Source of the DNA: Minisyncoccota bacterium
Lineage (GTDB): Bacteria; Patescibacteriota; Minisyncoccia; Phycocordibacterales; UBA6065
Assembly (NCBI GenBank): GCA_036400935.1
Contig: DASWWW010000002.1
Location: forward strand, 137,529-201,528
DNA length: 64,000 nt
Direction of reading: 5' to 3'
Shown here piece after piece: positions 5,373-39,304 of this stretch (the first letter of the stretch is position 1; each line of letters begins with the position of its first letter). The notes beneath the pieces were generated by a model. It worked only from the letters and a program-made list of their open reading frames with translations, was not told the DNA's origin and did no database searches. The translations under genes and the position numbers were made by a program.

Positions 5373-5821
5373 TGCCGGTAGACGGTGACGACGGTGTCAT
5401 TATCTACCCGGCCGACTGAACCGAGATTAAAATCGGCCTCAGAAGAGCCTGGCAGGACCTCGATGATGGCGACATTGCCGAAATGCGCCTGCCGATCGCC
5501 GAAATTCTGGGACACGTTGCCGGACAGCTTCCTGCCTCGGTAGCTGGGGAGCTCGAATGCTTCGCCCTCGCATACCTCGCTGAAAGGCACCTGAGATCGG
5601 GGCACGAGCGTCCAGAAGCCCACATCATCCATCTGTATTTGCCGCAAAACCTGAAGTCGTGCGAGCGCCTTCAGAAGCACAGGCATGGACGTGTTAGGCG
5701 GCACTTTGCAGAAGAGGTCGCTGATCGACAGCGGCTTGCCGATATTCGCTTTGAGGACATCGATGATCCGCTGCTCTGGGGCTGGAGGTATAACCACTGA
5801 CGGGGGAGCTGATTGACTCAT
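5354..5821 (-). CDS. hypothetical protein (155 aa) immediately downstream of smc on the same strand; possible winged-helix N-terminus
   Basis: Intact ORF, 98 bp after the smc stop. The N-terminal region IIDVLKANIGKPLSISDLFCKV looks wHTH-like; this is my impression only. Confidence 0.5.
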   Translation of the reverse strand: MSQSAPPSVVIPPAPEQRIIDVLKANIGKPLSISDLFCKVPPNTSMPVLLKALARLQVLRQIQMDDVGFWTLVPRSQVPFSEVCEGEAFELPSYRGRKLSGNVSQNFGDRQAHFGNVAIIEVLPGSSEADFNLGSVGRVDNDTVVTVYRQAKSPQ

Positions 5822-5919
5822 GGTATGGAAAGAAAACAGTTGACCGACTCGGGATTACCTTGCCAGACTACCCCGCCCTGTATTTTTTGCAAGAAAAAAG
5901 CACCCCGACCGGGCGCCTT

Positions 5920-8190
5920 CTATTTTGCCACCGCCAACGCCTCGTTAAACGCGATCGACAGCAGCTTCGAGTATCCTTCGCGGCCCATAGTGACTCCGTA
6001 GAGCACTCCTGCGCGGCCCATGGTCTCTCGGTTGTGGGTGATGACGATGAGCTGCGACGATTTCGCGAGGCCTTCCACCATGTCGCCGTACTTCTTCGAG
6101 TTCGCCTCGTCGAGGGCGGCGTCTGTCTCGTCCAATATGATAAATGGCGGCGGATTGACCTGAGAGATCGCGAACAAAAGCGCGATAGACGTGAGTGCGC
6201 GCTCGCCTCCCGAAAGCATTTCGAGAGCCTTGATCTTCTTGCGCGGCAAATTCACCTGAATGTCGACACCAAGCTCTGTCTCTTCCGGCTCGTCCTCCTC
6301 GCCTCCTGCGCCGATACCCATTTCTGCCATTTCCTCGGGGGAAAGCTGGCGGCGGCGCTTCTTTTCGCGGACGACGGCAAGGGACGCCTCGCCGCCGCCG
6401 AACATGAGCGCGAAATACTCCTTAAACTGATTGTTTATTTTTGAAATTCCTTCTGAAAAAAGCGTATCGAGCTTCACCTCGAGGTCCTTTATGAGAGTTG
6501 TGAGGGAATTCGCCGAATTCTCGAGGTCGAGAAGCTCGCGCGCCAAAAATTCGTCTCGCTCAGTCGTCTCCTTGAACTCCTTCATGACCTCGCCCGGCGA
6601 GACCGCGCCTGAATCCTCGAGGCGAATCTTTATCTTCTCGATATTCTTGCGGCGATCCTCCTGGGCGTGGCGCTCTTCGGCAGGATGCACGGTCGCATCT
6701 GACTCGTACGCGTAGATATCGCGGCCGATCAGTATCGCGCCCTCCTCGACCTCCCTCTTGAAATCCTCTTTCTCAAGGCGAAGCTTCTCCTCGCGCACGC
6801 GCAGGACGCCGAGCTTGCCGCGTATCTCGTTCTCCTCGGCCATGATGCGGAACATCGCCTTTTCGGCGTCGCGAGAGCTGTCTTTCTCCTTCTCGATGCC
6901 CGCGCGCAATGCGCCATAGGCGTCCGACAGCCTCGCCAGCTCGGATTCCTTCTCCTTCGCCTCGGCGTCGGCATCGGTCTTGCGGCTGCGGAGGATCTCT
7001 ATCTCCTTCTCGAGGTCTCCGGCACGATTCTCCGCCTTGGTATTCTTGTTCGACTCGAGGAAAGCCTTGAGGGACGCGCGAATTTTCGCCAAGACGCCTC
7101 GAATAGCGCCCATGTCAGACGAGGTCTCGATATCCGTGGCCAATCCATCTACGTGCGCGACCAACTCCTTTACCTTGGCGTATTCGACAGTCGTAATCTC
7201 GGCCTGAGCGCTCTGCCTTTCTCGGGCAAGCATCCTCTCGAGGCTTCCGATCTCTCCCTCGATGCGGCCGATAGTGCGGGTAATCTCGTCGCGGGACGCG
7301 CGGACTGTCTTCAGGTTCGATTCAAGCTCGATCAGCTCGCTCGACTTTACGTCCTTGTGCTTCGAGTCCTCCAGGACCTTCTTGGCGAGGGCAAGCTCCT
7401 TTTCGAGGCGCTCCAAATCCTGCTTTGGCTGCGCGCTCTCGGTCGCCAACGCCTTTTCCGTGGCGGAAAGGTAGTCGGACTCGCGCCTGAGGTACTCCTT
7501 GTATACGTTGCGCAATTCCTCGCGCAAGGCGATGGTCTTCTCGACCTTCTCCACCTGCTTTTTCAAAAATTTGAGATGAGGCGCGATCTCCTTTCGCAAG
7601 GATTCGACCTTGTCCATATTCTCGCGCGTCTTTACGAGCTTTCGCTCGCTCTCTTCGCGCTTGTACTGGAAGACCTTGAGGCCGAGGGCGTCCTCGATCA
7701 TCTCGCGGCGCTCCTTGATGTTGGCATTCAAAATGCGGTCCGCCTCGCCCTGGGAAATGATGTGGTGTCCTGAGCTGCCGATGTGGGCGCCGGCGAGCAG
7801 TTCGGTGATATCGCGCAAGCGTACGGCCGACCCGTTGATGAAATACTCGGAAAGAGAGTCGCGATGGATGACGCGCTCGATCGTGACCTCGTCGAAGTCG
7901 ATATTAAGGAGTCTTTTGCCATTCTTCAGGCTGTTATCAAAGACGAGCTTTACCGAAGCGCGGTTGCCTCGCGGCGAATTCTCGCCTCCGTTGAAGATGA
8001 GGTCCTCGGTACGCTTTCCGCGCATCGACTTTATGGACTGCTCACCCAGTACGAAGCGGAAAGCCTCGGCGACGTTCGATTTGCCGGAGCCGTTAGGGCC
8101 CACGACCGCCGTTACGGGCGCATTGAATTCGAGATTCGCCTTCTTGGCGAAAGACTTGAAGCCGGTAAGCTCGAGGGATTTCAGATGCAT
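5920..8190 (-). CDS. smc: SMC-family chromosome-segregation ATPase, short form (756 aa) with no recognisable hinge domain
   Basis: N-terminus MHLKSLELTGFKSFAKK...GPNGSGKSNVAEAFRFVLGEQS carries the Walker A. C-terminus LSGGERALTSIALLFAI...ILDETDAALD carries the signature and Walker B. Everything in between is coiled-coil. Confidence 0.8.
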   Translation of the reverse strand: MHLKSLELTGFKSFAKKANLEFNAPVTAVVGPNGSGKSNVAEAFRFVLGEQSIKSMRGKRTEDLIFNGGENSPRGNRASVKLVFDNSLKNGKRLLNIDFDEVTIERVIHRDSLSEYFINGSAVRLRDITELLAGAHIGSSGHHIISQGEADRILNANIKERREMIEDALGLKVFQYKREESERKLVKTRENMDKVESLRKEIAPHLKFLKKQVEKVEKTIALREELRNVYKEYLRRESDYLSATEKALATESAQPKQDLERLEKELALAKKVLEDSKHKDVKSSELIELESNLKTVRASRDEITRTIGRIEGEIGSLERMLARERQSAQAEITTVEYAKVKELVAHVDGLATDIETSSDMGAIRGVLAKIRASLKAFLESNKNTKAENRAGDLEKEIEILRSRKTDADAEAKEKESELARLSDAYGALRAGIEKEKDSSRDAEKAMFRIMAEENEIRGKLGVLRVREEKLRLEKEDFKREVEEGAILIGRDIYAYESDATVHPAEERHAQEDRRKNIEKIKIRLEDSGAVSPGEVMKEFKETTERDEFLARELLDLENSANSLTTLIKDLEVKLDTLFSEGISKINNQFKEYFALMFGGGEASLAVVREKKRRRQLSPEEMAEMGIGAGGEEDEPEETELGVDIQVNLPRKKIKALEMLSGGERALTSIALLFAISQVNPPPFIILDETDAALDEANSKKYGDMVEGLAKSSQLIVITHNRETMGRAGVLYGVTMGREGYSKLLSIAFNEALAVAK

Positions 8191-10477: not shown

Positions 10478-11071
10478 CTAGAGCAGGCCTTTCATGAAGC
10501 TCTTGCGGTGTATCGGCGTCATCCCGTTCGAGCTAATGGCCGCCAGGTGAAGCGCCGTGCCGTAGCCCTTATGCCTTTCAAAGCCATAGGCTGGATATTT
10601 CTTGGCCATCTTGTCCATATGGCCGTCGCGAGTGACCTTGGCGATGACAGAGGCCATGCTTATGAGGGGAATCTTCTCGTCCCCCTTTATGAAAGTCTCT
10701 TGGTGAACGTATGCCACTGGCGCCTTGAGCGAGCCGTCGAGAAGAACGCTCGTTCCGGACGGGTCGAGACCGAGGGTCGCGAGGCATTCGGCGAGCGCCG
10801 ACCTGATGGCGCCGGTGATTCCGTCCCTGTCGATCTCCCGGGCCGTTCGCGACACGACAGACCATCTCATAGCGCCAGCATCGCGCGCCGCCTGCGCCCT
10901 GGCGAACCACTCTTCCCTCTTTTTTGCCGAGAGTTTTTTCGAATCCCTGATTCCGGCAAACCATCCCATATTGAAATCCGCCGTCACGGAGCACGCGCAG
11001 AGCGTCACCGGGCCAGCCAGAGGGCCACGGCCGACCTCGTCGATGCCGACGATGTTTGAGATTTTGGGCAT
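10478..11071 (-). CDS. rnhB: ribonuclease HII
   Basis: IVGIDEVGRGPLAGPV signature. The ORF is open up to 11188, but that N-terminal extension would translate the palindrome (FVVFFYY), so I prefer the MPKIS start at 11071. Confidence 0.85.
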   Translation of the reverse strand: MPKISNIVGIDEVGRGPLAGPVTLCACSVTADFNMGWFAGIRDSKKLSAKKREEWFARAQAARDAGAMRWSVVSRTAREIDRDGITGAIRSALAECLATLGLDPSGTSVLLDGSLKAPVAYVHQETFIKGDEKIPLISMASVIAKVTRDGHMDKMAKKYPAYGFERHKGYGTALHLAAISSNGMTPIHRKSFMKGLL

Positions 11072-11091
11072 GCTCACAGTATATACTTTTT

Positions 11092-11141
11092 CCGCCATGG
11101 GCGATTTGTAGTAAAAAAATACTACAAATCGCCCATGGCGG
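11092..11141. repeat. perfect 22-bp inverted repeat CCGCCATGGGCGATTTGTAGTA-A6-TACTACAAATCGCCCATGGCGG in the divergent rnhB/dnaE region
   Basis: Read directly from the sequence. It shares the core TTTGTAGTA-W-TACTACAAA with the repeat at 25365-25391. Confidence 0.7.
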
Positions 11142-11224
11142 AAAATACGCATCCCGCCCTCGGCACTACACGGACACGTCAAAGTCAACGCGCATTTAAG
11201 ACCGATTTGTTCTAAAATCTACGC

Positions 11225-34708: not shown

Positions 34709-36361
34709 CTACCCTCGCGCGATATGATCCAGCATGTATTTCTTGGTCGCGCCGACTTTTTTGCCCGGATTGAGGATATTTGCCGGGTCGAAAGCCTTTT
34801 TCGTACGGTCAAAGAGCGCGATGACCTCGGGCCCGAACATTTTCGCCAGGTACGGCGTGCGGATGATGCCGTCGTTATGCTCTGCCGTGAGCGATCCCTT
34901 GTACGAGAGCACGAGATCGTAGACCTTATCCGAGACCTCGTCGATGATCGGCACGTTTTTCGGGTCCTTCATGTCCATGAGAGGGATGATGTGGAAATTT
35001 CCGTTGCCAGCATGGCCGGCGATGGTGTAGACGAGCTTGTAGTCGTCGAGAATTCGCCGCATCTTTGGCAAGAAGTCAGGCATGGCTGCCGGCGGTACGA
35101 CTATGTCGTCGATGAACGGCGCCGTTCGCCTGCCGTGGACGTGGCTTCGCAGGAGGTTGAAGCTCTCGCGGCGGATCGTCCAGTACTTTTCCGAGTCGAA
35201 TTCGTTTCTGGCGCGACGCATCTTGAAGCCGTAGCCTTTTATCTTGGCCTCGAGGGCGTTTATGGTCGCGTCGATCTCGGACTCGGTGTCGCCCGAGAAT
35301 TCGACAAGGAGGACGAGCTTTGGGAAGCCTCCGCCAAGAGCCATGAAGGCCTCGGGAATGAAGCTCCAGAGCAGGCGGAAGAAGTTGAGCTTCATGGTCT
35401 TGAGCATCGACGGCATGAATTTCACGGCGAGGGCCATAGTGCTGTCGTCATACGACTCGAGGCTTTCCGGGCCGAGCGGCAGGATGTCGTTTACGATCTG
35501 GCCGAGGCGGCTGATCTCCGGCATGAATACGACGAACAGTTTCGAAAGGGGCTTTATCGGCACGAGGCGGACCTTAACCTCGGTCACGATGCCAAGAGTT
35601 CCCTGCGATCCAACAAGGAGCTTTGTCATATCGAAAATTTCCGTCTGTGCATTCCAGACATTCCAGAGGTAGTAGCCGGCAGAGTTTTTAGAAACCTTCG
35701 GCTTTGCATCGGCGAGCAGGGGCGCATTGCGCGAGACCATATCCCAAACGCTGCGATAGACTTCCCCTTCGAAATCTTCTTGGGAAAGCTTTGCCCTGAG
35801 GCCCTCCTTGTCGAGAGGCTTCACCACGTATTCGTTGCCGTCCGAGAAAATCGCCTTGAGCTCGAGGATGTAGTCCTCCATTTTGCCGTATTTGAGCGTC
35901 TTCTCGCCCGCCGAGTTATTGCCGACCATGCCGCCGATGGTGTTCAGATTCTTCGAAGCCGTATAGCACGGGAGCATGATGCCGAGCCTTGCTGCCGCGG
36001 GCTCGAAATCGCGGTAGAAAGTTCCGGGAAGGACGCGTGCAGACTCTTTCGTGAGGTCGAGGATGCCGTGCATGAATCGCGTAACGTCGAGGATGATCGA
36101 GTCATTGAGAGGGCCGCCAGCCATGCAGGTTCCGGCCGATCGGACGGTTACGGAAAGGTCGGGATATGCGGTTTTGTTTATGCGGACGAAATGAACGACC
36201 GCCTTTATGTCGTTTGCGTCCTTTGGGAAGAGGACGATCTTCGGCTTAACCTCGAGCAGACTGGCGTCATGGCTGAACGTCGTCAGGACGGCCGCCGAAT
36301 CCTCGATATCGCCTTTGAAATTATCCTTAAGAAACGATTTGAGCGCTGTGATTGAATCCAT
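34709..36361 (-). CDS. FAD-linked oxidase (PCMH-type FAD-binding domain; GlcD / D-lactate dehydrogenase / alkyl-DHAP synthase family)
   Basis: FAD-binding region ...VTVRSAGTCMAGG...NTIGGMVGNNSAGEKTLKYGKMEDYILELKAIFSDGN...; 550 aa. The antisense 543-aa ORF is rejected. Confidence 0.7.
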   Translation of the reverse strand: MDSITALKSFLKDNFKGDIEDSAAVLTTFSHDASLLEVKPKIVLFPKDANDIKAVVHFVRINKTAYPDLSVTVRSAGTCMAGGPLNDSIILDVTRFMHGILDLTKESARVLPGTFYRDFEPAAARLGIMLPCYTASKNLNTIGGMVGNNSAGEKTLKYGKMEDYILELKAIFSDGNEYVVKPLDKEGLRAKLSQEDFEGEVYRSVWDMVSRNAPLLADAKPKVSKNSAGYYLWNVWNAQTEIFDMTKLLVGSQGTLGIVTEVKVRLVPIKPLSKLFVVFMPEISRLGQIVNDILPLGPESLESYDDSTMALAVKFMPSMLKTMKLNFFRLLWSFIPEAFMALGGGFPKLVLLVEFSGDTESEIDATINALEAKIKGYGFKMRRARNEFDSEKYWTIRRESFNLLRSHVHGRRTAPFIDDIVVPPAAMPDFLPKMRRILDDYKLVYTIAGHAGNGNFHIIPLMDMKDPKNVPIIDEVSDKVYDLVLSYKGSLTAEHNDGIIRTPYLAKMFGPEVIALFDRTKKAFDPANILNPGKKVGATKKYMLDHIARG

Positions 36362-36369
36362 GCGAGATA

Positions 36370-36750
36370 TTATACCCCAATAGCTTTCTCGAGGCGCACG
36401 ATGCGGACGTCATGGCCGCGATACATGCCTGTCAGCTCGTCGAATTTGAATTCGAGCGTATCAAGCCTCCCTTTGACCCCGCGCATGTCATCCTTCAAGT
36501 CTGAGACATCCGATTTCAGCTCATACAGGGACTGCTCCGTAGACTTTTTGAAAGGCTCGAACTCGTCTCTGGTTACCATATTCTTATCCAGATACTTGAA
36601 CAGCGAATCAAAAGCATCCGTCACGGTCGTGACGATCTCTTTTATGTCTGCCTTGGTAGCCACCTCAGATCCTGAATTTTGATCGCTGTCCTTCATACAA
36701 AAATTATATCGACCCAATAGACGCAGTAAAGGAAAAATATCAGCGGGCAA
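36370..36750 (-). CDS. hypothetical coiled-coil protein (about 109-126 aa)
   Basis: Lies between the Y-family polymerase and the FAD oxidase on the same strand. The likely start is MKDSDQ at 36694. Confidence 0.4.
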   Translation of the reverse strand: MPADIFPLLRLLGRYNFCMKDSDQNSGSEVATKADIKEIVTTVTDAFDSLFKYLDKNMVTRDEFEPFKKSTEQSLYELKSDVSDLKDDMRGVKGRLDTLEFKFDELTGMYRGHDVRIVRLEKAIGV

Positions 36751-36769
36751 TAATCGAGATAAAATTTTC

Positions 36770-38038
36770 CTAAAGAACGTCGCCGATAAACGGAACCGAG
36801 AGCCTTCGGCGCACGCCGGGCGGCAGGAATGAGAGGCTCTTCTCGCCCCGCTCCTCCTTTTGGATGGCGCGCAGGCTCGATGCGACGTGGATCAGGTCGC
36901 GCCCGTATTTTTTATTGAGTTGATCGACGGCCTTGAATGCCTCGCCTCGGCTGCGGTCTGCGCCGGCCGCGCCGAACAAGTCCTCCTGGCGGCCAGACGC
37001 GGGCACAAGATTGCACAAGGTCACTCCCGAAGCACGATACACGTGGCCGGGATCGAACAGCTTCCCGAATAGCTTCTTGGCCTCGGCAATGATGATGAAT
37101 GGATCGTCGGTGGCGAGCTGGAGTCTAACCGAGTCGCGCTTGTACCAAAACTCCTTGGTCTTTATGAAGACGGAGAATTCGCGAGCGCACAGGCCCATGC
37201 CGCGCGCCCTGTGGCAGGCGCCCTCTATGTTTTTTGAAAGCTCCGAAAAGATGTAGCCCTCGTCGCTCGAATGCGGATGGAATGAGCGGGTCTTCATGAT
37301 CGATTTCTGCGCCTGGCCCGCATGCTCGCCGACGCGGTTGATCGAAGTGCCGTTGAGCTCGTACCACATCTCGATCTGAAGCTTTGAGAAATGCTCGCGG
37401 ACCCAGTCTGCCGATTTTCGCGCAAAATCGAGGGCCGTGTTGATGCCCAGCTTGCGAAACGAGATAGTCGTAGCCGAGCCGATGCCCCAGACGCTGCCGA
37501 TCGGCGTCCTGTCGAGCAGCTTTTCGACATCGGCCATGGGTAGGATGGTCAGGCCGTTAGGCTTTTGGCTTTTCGATGCCGTCTTTGCCAGGACGCGTGT
37601 CGATGCGAGGCCGAGCGATACGGAAATGCCAAGCTCTCGAGCGATGTCTTTCTTTATCTTTTCCAAAATGGGGCGAGCGGACTCGAGCGAGCCGTCGGCG
37701 GCAGGCGCGAATTCGGGAATATCGGAGAAATCGGCAAAGCACTCGTCTATGGAGTACTCCTCAACCACGTCCGTGTAGCGCCGGACTATATCGAACATGC
37801 GGCGCGAGAAAACGGCATAGGCGTCGTAGTCGGATTCGACGATGCGCACCTGCGGAAACTCCTTTCTGATGCGAAAGACCGGCATGGCGCGGGTAATGCC
37901 GAGCGACTTCGCTTCCTTGGACATGGCCGTGGCGATGCCGCGCTCGAATCCCGTCACGACGGGCTTGCCGCGCAAGGACGGATCCTTGGCAGCCTCGACC
38001 GACGCAAAGAAAGAATCGCCATCGAGGTGCATGATCAT
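36770..38038 (-). CDS. Y-family (UmuC-like) translesion DNA polymerase
   Basis: MIMHLDGDSFFASVE...GKPVVT...YSIDECFADF palm motifs. It resembles UmuC (GKPVVVL, YSIDEAFCDL) more than DinB. There is a 4-bp overlap (ATGA) with the upstream S24 gene. Confidence 0.8.
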   Translation of the reverse strand: MIMHLDGDSFFASVEAAKDPSLRGKPVVTGFERGIATAMSKEAKSLGITRAMPVFRIRKEFPQVRIVESDYDAYAVFSRRMFDIVRRYTDVVEEYSIDECFADFSDIPEFAPAADGSLESARPILEKIKKDIARELGISVSLGLASTRVLAKTASKSQKPNGLTILPMADVEKLLDRTPIGSVWGIGSATTISFRKLGINTALDFARKSADWVREHFSKLQIEMWYELNGTSINRVGEHAGQAQKSIMKTRSFHPHSSDEGYIFSELSKNIEGACHRARGMGLCAREFSVFIKTKEFWYKRDSVRLQLATDDPFIIIAEAKKLFGKLFDPGHVYRASGVTLCNLVPASGRQEDLFGAAGADRSRGEAFKAVDQLNKKYGRDLIHVASSLRAIQKEERGEKSLSFLPPGVRRRLSVPFIGDVL

Positions 38039-38367
38039 ACGAGCTTGCGGATTACGGCCGTGACGACGGCCTCTATGGAAAGCTCCGAGCCGACTGCAAG
38101 ATCCGCGCGAACAGGACCCGCGCCACCAATTCGCGAATCGAACCGGGCCATCCTAAAAGCGCCGTCATGCACGGCAATCACGATATTTCCATCGTGCGGC
38201 GAACGGGATCGGTCGACGATCAGCAAATCGCCGCGGAAAATTCCCTCACCGCGCATCGAATCGCCGGACGCGCGCATCATGAAAGTCGCCTCCTTATTTT
38301 CTATGAGGTATTCGTCGAGAGACATCGTCTCGAGCGCGTCTTCTTCTGCCTGCGTGCGGAATCCCAT
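38035..38367 (-). CDS. UmuD'-like S24 peptidase-domain protein lacking the N-terminal cleavage arm and the catalytic Lys
   Basis: ASGDSMRGEGIFRGDLLIVDRS...DGNIVIAVHDGAFRMARF aligns to UmuD [21 protein letters not shown]...GDIVIAAVDGEFTVKKL. Only about 35 residues lie before the Ser. The start is set at ATG 38367; the ORF track extends to GTG at 38373. Confidence 0.7.
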   Translation of the reverse strand: MGFRTQAEEDALETMSLDEYLIENKEATFMMRASGDSMRGEGIFRGDLLIVDRSRSPHDGNIVIAVHDGAFRMARFDSRIGGAGPVRADLAVGSELSIEAVVTAVIRKLV

Positions 38368-38373
38368 GCACAC

Positions 38374-38402
38374 AGTATAAGTGAACTACAGTTCACTTTC
38401 AA
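38374..38402 (-). promoter_or_regulatory. sigma70-type promoter TTGAAA-17-TATACT for the umuD-like/umuC-like operon; likely leaderless
   Basis: On the coding strand: TTGAAA GTGAACTGTAGTTCACT TATACT GTGC ATG. The ATG at 38367 is 7 nt after the -10 element. Confidence 0.55.
38380..38397. promoter_or_regulatory. Cheo-type SOS box (LexA operator) AGTGAAC-TACA-GTTCACT
   Basis: Perfect palindrome containing GAAC-N4-GTTC, which matches the B. subtilis-type consensus CGAACRNRYGTTCG. It occupies the promoter spacer. Confidence 0.65.
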
Positions 38403-38404
38403 CT

Positions 38405-39304
38405 TTACAACTTATTGAAAATTTTGAGCTCCTCCTCCACCACCTTCTGCATGGCCTCGATCGTAGGCTTCATGATCTTATATGGGGCGACCTGCGACGG
38501 GTCTGATGCGACCTGCTTCGCCAGGGCGTCGCGAAAAGCGACCCGTATTTCAGTATTCACATGGATAATCGCGACGCCCGCATCAATCGCGGCCACGAAA
38601 TCCTCCGCCGAGTTTCCAGAACCGCCATGCAAAACAAGGGGCACCTTTGCCGCGGCCGAAATCTCCCCTATCCTCTTTATGTTCAGATCAGGATCCTTCC
38701 CGCCCGAGAGCATGCCGTGGATATTGCCGACAGCAGGCGCGAGCATATCGACGCCCGTAGCGTCGCGGAACTTCTTGGCCTCCTCGGGCTTTGTCAGGAA
38801 TTCCTCGCTGATCTTTACTCCCTCGGGGATGGCGTCGAGCACCCTCGAAGACTTGCCGATGAATCCGATCTCAGCCTCAACCAAAATATTCGGATTGATT
38901 TTCTTGGCATAGGCCACGCATTTTTTCGTAGCGGCGACATTGTCGTCGAAAGACTGCTCCGTGCCATCATAAATGACCGAGTCATAGCCCGCATCGACGA
39001 CCTCCTTCACCTTTTCGAACGAGTACGTGTGATCGGCATTGAGGAAGATCGGGAATCCTCCCTTTTTTACCGAATCAACGAGCGCGCGAACCTGAGCGAC
39101 ACCCATAAATTCCCGCTCACCCTCGGAGACGCCGATGATGACCGGCACCTGAAGCTTCTTTGCCGCGTTCACGACCGCCCAGAATCCCTCGATGTTTGAA
39201 ATGTTGAAATGGCCGATAGCGACTTTCTTGGCGAGAGCGTCCTGTACGTACCACTGAAGGGATTTTGGGCCGGCCTTCGCGCCTGATGTGAAGAATGTGA
39301 ACAT
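38405..39304 (-). CDS. fba: class II fructose-bisphosphate aldolase (FBA / tagatose-bisphosphate aldolase family)
   Basis: IGHFNISNIEG...PVIIGVSEG...LNADHTYSFE...HGGSGNS. Confidence 0.85.
   Translation of the reverse strand: MFTFFTSGAKAGPKSLQWYVQDALAKKVAIGHFNISNIEGFWAVVNAAKKLQVPVIIGVSEGEREFMGVAQVRALVDSVKKGGFPIFLNADHTYSFEKVKEVVDAGYDSVIYDGTEQSFDDNVAATKKCVAYAKKINPNILVEAEIGFIGKSSRVLDAIPEGVKISEEFLTKPEEAKKFRDATGVDMLAPAVGNIHGMLSGGKDPDLNIKRIGEISAAAKVPLVLHGGSGNSAEDFVAAIDAGVAIIHVNTEIRVAFRDALAKQVASDPSQVAPYKIMKPTIEAMQKVVEEELKIFNKL

Follow-up and report, generated by a model that had tools for sequence, protein, structure and literature searches.

Can a UmuC-like translesion polymerase be run with a partner subunit that never has to be cleaved? 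This question is raised by a two-gene locus in a 64,000-nucleotide stretch (hereafter the window; G+C 55%) of contig DASWWW010000002.1, from a Minisyncoccota bacterium of the candidate phyla radiation (CPR). Here, a 110-aa protein of the S24 peptidase family, referred to as the mini-S24 protein, is encoded directly in front of a 422-aa Y-family DNA polymerase. An original prediction, made from the letters of this DNA, took the small protein for a genetically pre-processed UmuD' analogue expressed from a leaderless promoter with a LexA box in its spacer. We consider it probable that the locus is an SOS-controlled translesion-polymerase operon, in which the mini-S24 protein acts as the constitutive UmuD'-like subunit of the co-encoded UmuC-like polymerase.

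All elements of the locus could be read directly from the letters and lie on the minus strand, with both promoter hexamers also recovered by a promoter scan. They are as follows:

38402 to 38397, minus strand: -35 hexamer TTGAAA, starting 2 nt past the stop codon TAA (38407 to 38405) of the upstream gene fba
Between TTGAAA and TATACT, minus strand: 17-nt promoter spacer GTGAACTGTAGTTCACT
38380 to 38397, no strand assigned: predicted LexA operator AGTGAAC-N4-GTTCACT, an 18-bp palindrome with 7-bp perfect arms
38379 to 38374, minus strand: -10 hexamer TATACT
Between the -10 hexamer and ATG 38367, minus strand: 6-nt gap GTGTGC
38367 to 38365, minus strand: ATG start codon and predicted leaderless transcription start, its A being the 7th nt past the -10 hexamer
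38367 to 38035, minus strand: mini-S24 gene, 110 aa (NCBI HEY0908125.1)
38038 to 36770, minus strand: Y-family DNA polymerase gene, 422 aa (NCBI HEY0908124.1)

The palindrome is made up of the final base of the -35 hexamer and the entire 17-nt spacer, and the 4 nt at its centre lack self-complementarity. The promoter scan gave a sigma-70-type match of 10/12 with a 17-nt spacer. The S24 stop overlaps the polymerase start by ATGA, which suggests translational coupling of the polymerase. The palindrome, both hexamers, the spacer length, the two open reading frames (ORFs) and their overlap were all found just as originally described. Owing to an in-frame TAG (38388 to 38386) seven codons 5' of ATG 38367, the first ORF can begin no earlier than GTG 38373 or ATG 38367. 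The GTG start (MCMGF...) was rejected, as it abuts the -10 hexamer and the codons upstream are not conserved in other loci; gene callers also place the start at ATG 38367. The upstream gene encodes a class II fructose-bisphosphate aldolase (fba; identical to NCBI HEY0908126), and both operon proteins are identical to NCBI entries, labelled 'S24 family peptidase' and 'DNA polymerase IV'. These entries belong to a metagenome-assembled genome with third-party annotation, filed as Candidatus Paceibacterota bacterium. An Rfam search of positions 36300 to 38800 matched no family.

The identity of the palindrome was assessed by comparison across loci, using one genome per species and a set of eight short-S24 loci and 72 full-length CPR lexA loci (LexA of ~186-192 aa), 70 of the latter being analysable. 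A GAAC-N4-GTTC-type box was located 5' of lexA in 55/70 lexA loci, and the box ran directly into a TAnnnT hexamer in 57/70. All but one of these 57 (56) also had a -35 hexamer at the proper distance, such that the box fills the promoter spacer. A strict version of the box, [GT][TA]GAAC-N4-GTTC[AT][CA], was scanned for in 774,515 bp from 80 loci and occurred 50 times (~0.7 expected by chance), at most once per locus and in 50/50 cases directly 5' of the S24 gene. The box was present in 10/11 independent short-S24 loci (the window, L001, L002, L003, L005, L008, L009, L012, L090 and L091), where the GTGAAC and GTTCAC arms were identical in all ten and the central N4 was variable. By the standard logic of SOS comparative genomics, a box carried phylum-wide on the promoter of lexA itself is the LexA operator. 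Since the palindrome is this same box, GTGAAC-N4-GTTCAC is predicted to be the LexA operator of this lineage, and LexA would be expected to bind it. Its presence at 55-57 of the 70 CPR lexA genes bears out the operator assignment made in the original prediction.

A Patescibacteria LexA motif was reportedly defined by Sanchez-Osuna et al. in 2017. In Firmicutes and Actinobacteria, LexA is known to recognise GAAC-N4-GTTC (PMC4951493). This Cheo box has the same core dyad and spacing as the CPR box (PMC4951493), whereas the CPR consensus extends to (G/T)(T/A)GAAC-N4-GTTC(A/T)(C/A) and typically sits exactly in the -35/-10 spacer. The core GAAC-N4-GTTC was not enriched inside the window (2 sites versus 1.14 expected). 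The second site (GAACGCTCGTTC, 10744 to 10755) lies within an ORF (10478 to 11188), lacks the extended arms and fits chance. Because both operator arms are perfectly kept across ten diverged loci while the centre varies, a factor such as a LexA bearing a DNA-binding domain arguably exists in this genome. Two LexA-like proteins with the same ...IRKLV end (P0030 and P0039) were considered as the lexA product of the same genome and rejected, as they come from other contexts or samples. A LexA profile search returned >7,000 matches, and none was traceable near accession HEY0908125 among the matches listed.

The mini-S24 protein belongs to the S24 family (Pfam Peptidase_S24, PF00717; 56.4 bits against a cut-off of 23.3). 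When it is aligned with LexA of CPR bacteria and of E. coli, with E. coli UmuD and with phage HumD, Met1 falls on P1 of the scissile bond (occupied by Ala in LexA and by Cys in UmuD) and Gly2-Phe3 on the Gly-Phe that opens UmuD'. Ser37 aligns with the nucleophile and Ala74 occupies the position of the dyad Lys. The protein has neither the Ser-Lys dyad of an active autopeptidase nor an Ala-Gly or Cys-Gly bond with a preceding N-terminal segment. The original claim that the cleavage arm is missing and the dyad Lys replaced was put to an alignment check and held, with Met1 at P1 and Ala74 at Lys. Past residue ~78, the LexA/UmuD beta-hairpin (~20-25 residues) is deleted and an 11-residue lineage-specific filler, predicted to be disordered, stands in its place. 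The LexA model TIGR00498 was matched at profile positions 91-165 only (47 bits against 110.95), and there is no winged-helix DNA-binding domain.

The best sequence matches in the PDB were UmuD and UmuD'. The top match was an engineered K97A mutant of E. coli UmuD (8gmt), which reads FTVAKL where the mini-S24 protein naturally reads FRMARF. The closest structural matches of an AlphaFold2 model (mean predicted local distance difference test score, pLDDT, of 73) were UmuD' (1ay9 and 1umu; template-modelling score ~0.6), followed by LexA C-terminal domains. On these alignments, the mini-S24 protein is a pre-truncated S24 domain of UmuD' length that lacks the cleavage site and the dyad Lys. Because the dyad Lys and the hairpin are lost and the protein begins at the Gly-Phe that cleavage would expose, it is predicted neither to be cleavable nor to need cleavage.

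Short S24 proteins of this kind (96-110 aa, nearly all opening M-(G/A)-F-R-T) form a family of >30 proteins, which fall into about a dozen 50%-identity clusters among 1.84 billion representatives. The relatives come from Paceibacterota, Taylorbacteria and other Patescibacteria/CPR metagenome-assembled genomes. The Ala-Gly, Ser and Lys are invariant in 29/29 full-length CPR LexA proteins; in the short family, the nucleophile position is S, A, H or G and only a minority retains the Lys. The family alignment has 11 invariant and 17 nearly invariant columns. Conservation peaks in the N-terminal arm (F3, T5, E8, M15-M30) and in the last strand (E99-K108), which are nearly invariant. In comparisons of the mini-S24 gene with its relatives, the proportion of nonsynonymous differences (pN) was 0.18-0.29 and that of synonymous differences (pS) ~0.7-0.8, these proportions being given in place of dN/dS since synonymous sites were saturated. 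Relative to the closest relative, L001, the mini-S24 protein changes ~3.5x faster than the flanking housekeeping genes. The free variation of catalytic positions, the conservation of the arm and the last strand and a pN well below pS, a strong sign of purifying selection, argue that the mini-S24 protein is a functional, non-proteolytic S24 derivative and not a pseudogene.

The ancestry of this family points to LexA. Full-length identity between the short proteins and CPR LexA is 42-56%, and the two have the motifs DTMSLDEYLIENKEAT and AVVTAVIRKY in common. Identity to E. coli UmuD was 33-35% in alignments and identity to HumD was 32%; for the HumD of the P1-like phage RCS47, the value was 32% in a five-sequence alignment and 36.8% by tblastn. 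In a neighbour-joining tree (no bootstrap), the short family formed one clade adjacent to the C-terminal domains of CPR LexA, and the whole CPR S24 group lay at a shorter distance from UmuD and HumD than from E. coli LexA. The mini-S24 protein, by these comparisons, descends from CPR LexA-type S24 domains. The UmuD' analogy drawn originally is apt for a pre-truncated S24 domain of UmuD' length, but the protein is not a UmuD orthologue. Intermediate forms were also found. Three proteins of 127-134 aa (P0199, P0208 and P0215) have no DNA-binding domain and retain the A-G site, the dyad and the hairpin, whilst two others (P0196 and that of L026) are hairpin-deleted, carry a 10-19-residue N-terminal extension and keep Ser and Lys. 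P0196 and the product of the L026 gene (5968 to 6291) have 107-111 aa, with an extension of 11-19 residues that ends T-G or A-G. In L026 the S24 gene is followed by a polymerase gene and its promoter is without a LexA box.

Linkage to the polymerase was strict. In 11/11 loci the short-S24 gene had a polymerase gene directly downstream, and most pairs overlapped at their stop and start codons. A homologue of the window polymerase also followed full-length lexA in 67/68 loci with enough downstream sequence, usually by a few tens of bases (for example L079, with lexA at 5773 to 6342 and the polymerase from ~6380). These lexA-linked polymerases are 38-46% identical to that of the window over the full length; those linked to short S24 genes are 57-80% identical and form their own clade. 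Each lexA-polY locus has one LexA box, 5' of lexA (~70 loci, L006-L080). Operons of the lexA-dinB type are reportedly present in Geobacter, as described by Jara et al. in 2003. The window operon and the CPR lexA-polY operon have in common the operator, the box-in-spacer promoter (often leaderless), the S24 motifs DTMSLDEYLIENKEAT and AVVTAVIRKY, and a homologous polymerase with a RecA-NT-like motif and tail. They differ in the first gene, which in the lexA-polY operon encodes a LexA of 186-192 aa that includes a winged-helix domain, has the hairpin intact and does not vary at Ala-Gly, Ser and Lys. The comparison identifies the window operon as a derivative of this widespread CPR operon, whose first gene appears to have lost its DNA-binding domain and kept the lexA-type promoter, operator and leaderless start. 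As with umuD, an S24 gene is located immediately 5' of a UmuC-type polymerase gene, and the two are presumably co-transcribed under LexA control.

The 422-aa protein is a Y-family polymerase by its Pfam matches (IMS, PF00817, 137 bits; IMS_C, PF11799, 61 bits), and the catalytic motifs HLDGDSFFAS and SIDECFAD are present. BLASTP aligned it with E. coli UmuC over 418/422 residues (28% identity, 140 bits), collinear to the end, and with E. coli DinB over residues 2-230 only (113 bits). The following elements were located towards its C-terminus:

36974 to 36988, minus strand: QEDLF, a candidate beta-clamp-binding motif (residues 351-355) aligned with UmuC QLNLF
36875 to 36940, minus strand: RecA-NT-like motif AFKAVDQLNKKYGRDLIHVASS (residues 367-388), aligned with UmuC LMTVMDTLNAKEGRGTLYFAGQ
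36773 to 36874, minus strand: C-terminal tail ...RRRLSVPFIGDVL (residues 389-422), a candidate site at which the S24 subunit would dock

The Q-x-D-L-F motif recurs among related polymerases. The RecA-NT motif was defined by Timinskas and Venclovas (PMC6511836), and its counterpart here is kept by every S24-linked CPR polymerase. The tail '...R(R/K)L.(I/V)P.(L/I)GE(V/A)' is kept in both the short-S24-linked and the lexA-linked CPR polymerases, and its end, also written ...RRLSVP(F/Y)(I/L)G(D/E)V, is common to the lexA-linked ones. The UmuC C-tail binds UmuD' (PMC6511836), and by analogy the tail seen here is a candidate docking site for the S24 subunit. With a putative clamp motif, a RecA-NT-like motif and a conserved tail, the layout of the polymerase is UmuC-like as judged by alignment. 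The description of it as UmuC-like in the original prediction stands as far as collinearity with UmuC is concerned, but neither a UmuC nor a Pol IV equivalog cut-off was passed.

These features suggest the following mode of action. A LexA dimer bound in the spacer would occlude RNA polymerase at the sigma-70-type promoter, and DNA damage would free the promoter through RecA-stimulated cleavage of LexA. Transcription from the A of ATG 38367, or from an adjacent position, would then give a leaderless bicistronic mRNA, on which the polymerase ORF would be translated by coupling via the ATGA overlap. The mini-S24 protein would need no activation, and removal of Met1 would leave it beginning Gly-Phe like UmuD'. 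Binding of the mini-S24 protein to the polymerase would involve the N-terminal arm and the C-terminal strand, just as UmuD' contacts UmuC with its arm and body; the UmuD' arm inserts into UmuC (PMC12926913). RecA may be a stoichiometric partner of the polymerase through the RecA-NT-like motif. Control would be transcriptional via LexA, with the proteolytic timer of E. coli Pol V absent. The original prediction had gone further, proposing control 'purely by LexA derepression', which probably overstates the case: with a RecA-NT-like motif retained in the polymerase, RecA could remain necessary as a subunit.

Several results weigh against this reading. The mini-S24 protein did not pass the NCBIfam cut-offs for UmuD (NF007621; 81 bits against 110) or HumD (NF051876; 61.4 bits against 120). 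The polymerase fell short of that for UmuC (NF002955; 167 bits against 431) and of those of all nine NCBIfam Pol IV models (best NF002492; 212 against 399), and its RecA-NT-like region matched Pfam DUF4113 at 18.9-21.8 bits, under the cut-off of 24. Dimerisation of the UmuD' type might depend on the deleted hairpin, in which case stoichiometry and contacts may differ from those of Pol V. In the closest relative (L001), the polymerase, 80% identical to that of the window, has an in-frame TAG at codon 182 (L001 6840 to 6842) where the window encodes Arg; some lineages may do without the operon or be losing it, though the TAG could also be an assembly error. A tblastn search of the 64-kb window with three LexA-type proteins (P0022, P0030 and P0060) and E. 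coli RecA as queries recovered the short gene alone, with neither lexA nor recA present. Finally, the promoter and terminator scan showed no terminator between fba and the promoter.

A different role for the small protein would be that of a regulator of the SOS switch, which heterodimerises with LexA or competes for RecA filaments in a feedback; the polymerase would then act by itself or with no partner but RecA. Its descent from LexA-type C-terminal domains, with the C-terminal strand ...AVVTAVIRKY common to both, is compatible with such a role, as is the position of its gene under a LexA box, which would make a feedback loop. However, the groove residues that LexA presents to RecA filaments vary freely in the short family and the hairpin is deleted. 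The conserved parts are instead the N-terminal arm and the last strand, as expected for a UmuD'-like partner, and the conserved tail of the polymerase resembles the UmuD'-binding tail of UmuC. The strict linkage to the polymerase (11/11 loci, mostly with overlapping stop and start) also favours a polymerase subunit, and we regard a purely regulatory role as rather unlikely.

The constitutive-subunit reading further involves a leaderless start. The arrangement TTGnnn / GTGAAC-N4-GTTCAC / TATA(C/A)T / exactly 6 nt / ATG was shared by 10/10 boxed short-S24 loci, so that the leaderless geometry noticed in the window turned out to be conserved in every one of them. The 6-nt gap is constant in length and varies in its letters, and the DNA farther upstream is unrelated among the ten loci (aldolase, tRNA-Ala, glycosyltransferase and others). 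Codons 2-5 vary mostly at synonymous third positions (TTC/TTT, CGC/CGA/AGA, ACG/ACA), with codon 2 being Gly or Ala, which indicates that translation begins at ATG 38367. Given the constant distance of 6 nt, transcription is expected to start on the A of the ATG, which leaves no space for a Shine-Dalgarno sequence. These observations imply that the operon mRNA would be leaderless, starting at or next to ATG 38367. Around one-third of CPR lexA genes have the same geometry (a gap of 6 nt in 14 loci and of 7-8 nt in six), which makes the design a standard one for SOS promoters within some of the CPR and nothing special to this operon. Across the genome it is not general: 4/66 predicted genes of the window show the geometry (0.8% background; several candidate starts per gene), a count that tells little by itself. 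The -10 hexamer, 6-7 nt and ATG also occur at the window gene starts 10434 and 42491 (both minus strand). Shine-Dalgarno-like motifs were found at 5/66 predicted gene starts in the window and at 28% of internal in-frame ATG/GTG codons, the start predictions being crude; this suggests that Shine-Dalgarno sequences are weakly used in this genome.

Because no terminator separates fba from the promoter, read-through transcripts with a leader are possible. The operon might be transcribed mainly in this way or from another upstream promoter, with the box acting as a roadblock and ATG 38367 as an internal start without a Shine-Dalgarno sequence. The fba stop and the ATG are only 37 nt apart, and nothing resembling a terminator hairpin lies between them; few window gene starts (5/66) have a Shine-Dalgarno-like motif in any case, and the leaderless geometry is not enriched window-wide (4/66). 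Against this, the series of -35, 17 nt, -10, 6 nt and ATG has been kept in ten loci with different upstream neighbours, and recurs at about a third of CPR lexA genes, with every start an ATG. A leadered mRNA would leave the constant 6-nt gap of varying sequence unexplained, and we think it quite unlikely to be the main transcript. That the 110-aa ORF is a decaying lexA remnant without its own function, with only the polymerase mattering, would accord with the loss of the DNA-binding domain, cleavage site, dyad Lys and hairpin, with evolution ~3.5x faster than that of neighbouring housekeeping genes and with the stop codon in the closest relative's polymerase, but is highly improbable for an intact ORF whose length and start are conserved in >30 proteins of about a dozen 50%-identity clusters, which has 11 invariant and 17 nearly invariant columns, a pN well below pS, mostly synonymous changes in codons 2-5 (except Gly/Ala at codon 2) and an AlphaFold2 model that folds as an S24 core.

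Neighbouring genes gave additional observations. A 108-aa coiled-coil gene downstream of the polymerase (36370 to 36696) was considered as part of the operon and rejected because it is absent from L001, the closest relative; on this comparison it is a lineage-specific insertion. It has a weak DUF16 match and its own TATAAT, 6 nt and ATG (36694 to 36708, minus strand). In three loci, a tRNA-Ala gene (GGC or CGC anticodon) ends ~55-60 nt 5' of the short-S24 start (L002 5874 to 5946, L005 5871 to 5942, L090 9875 to 9946), and in L008 and L012 a tRNA-Ala(TGC) gene is located 2-3 kb upstream. A resolvase/recombinase gene lies ~9 kb upstream on the P0015 contig. In two lexA loci (L049 5511 to 5768 and L078 5435 to 5641), a conserved ORF of 68-85 aa lies between the SOS promoter and lexA, starting 4-7 nt past the -10 hexamer. 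Its product (...IRTIRxEIxRxNREIDLRIIKGAxYRREALRHKxLMAELARLAP..., with a hydrophobic C-terminus) had no Pfam match and may be a small SOS-induced protein. In L084 (8425 to 10576), the gene for P0030, a 191-aa LexA-like protein with the ...IRKLV end and 50% identity to the mini-S24 protein, is divergent from a Y-family polymerase gene, on a contig with nitrite-reductase genes whose context looks non-CPR.

In E. coli, Pol V is held back by three layers of control, namely repression by LexA, a slow cleavage of UmuD that depends on RecA, and RecA transfer. If the mini-S24 protein is a constitutive UmuD'-like subunit, the window operon would be a natural chromosomal system without the middle layer, and its small protein a minimal S24 scaffold that may suffice to partner a UmuC-like polymerase. 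The related loci form a graded series, from LexA with polY through cleavable forms without a DNA-binding domain and hairpin-deleted forms to the dead, pre-cleaved mini-proteins, which could model the interconversion of S24 repressor and polymerase-accessory functions. It is possible, though we suggest it tentatively, that CPR LexA does both jobs, its C-terminal fragment (which would begin GFPSPAEE, like UmuD') activating the co-transcribed UmuC-like polymerase after RecA-stimulated self-cleavage, and that the window lineage split off the second job into a dead, pre-cleaved mini-subunit. If so, one cleavage event would both derepress the operon and assemble the mutasome. The box-in-spacer leaderless promoter would represent a compact and predictable damage-inducible switch in very small genomes. 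At present, such genes are annotated only under the two labels given above.

Among known systems, E. coli umuDC (Pol V) is likewise a two-gene operon with a LexA operator and overlapping stop and start, in which a small S24-fold gene precedes a 422-aa Y-family polymerase with a clamp motif, a RecA-NT motif and a C-tail. The mini-S24 protein has the length of UmuD' and would similarly begin with Gly-Phe after removal of Met. Unlike E. coli UmuD, it has no pro-form or Cys/Ala-Gly site, its dyad Lys is Ala, a hairpin of ~20 residues is deleted and its descent is of the CPR LexA type. The operator also differs, being of the GAAC-N4-GTTC type and lying inside the promoter spacer, and the mRNA is predicted to be leaderless.

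The concept of a pre-processed, LexA-controlled UmuD' is already known from HumD of phage P1 (NF051876), which is described as an already activated, shorter UmuD. HumD is also pre-truncated, with M-G-F at the cleavage site and a LexA box 5' of its gene, and MGFRTQAEE of the mini-S24 protein aligns with MGFPSPAAD of HumD. In the P1-like phage RCS47, humD starts MGFPSPAADY and is located behind a TACTGTATGAATAAACAGTA SOS box and a Shine-Dalgarno leader. However, HumD is phage-borne and has no polymerase gene of its own, using host UmuC instead; it keeps the dyad Lys and the hairpin, its gene has a leader with a Shine-Dalgarno sequence, and the box is of the E. coli type, CTGT-N8-ACAG. The CPR system, in comparison, is chromosomal, has its own polymerase, appears to be of LexA-type descent and is predicted to have a leaderless mRNA. 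Its mini-S24 protein has discarded the structural hairpin along with the dyad Lys, and members of the family have often lost the Ser too.

Two further systems resemble the operon in part. In Acinetobacter UmuDAb, one S24 lineage combines repressor-like and UmuD-like roles beside umuC-type genes (PMC8565304), a conceptual parallel to CPR LexA with polY behind it. UmuDAb, however, has gained or kept a DNA-binding domain and self-cleaves, whereas the mini-S24 protein, at the opposite extreme, has no such domain and is predicted not to be cleaved. In Bacillus subtilis, YqjX/YolD with YqjW/UvrX provide a small non-proteolytic accessory protein encoded 5' of a LexA-regulated RecA-NT Y-family polymerase, and the N-terminal arm of YolD/YqjX is proposed to insert into the polymerase (PMC6511836, PMC12926913). 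YolD belongs to an unrelated family (PF08863) with an SH3-like barrel, whereas the mini-S24 protein is a true S24 homologue.

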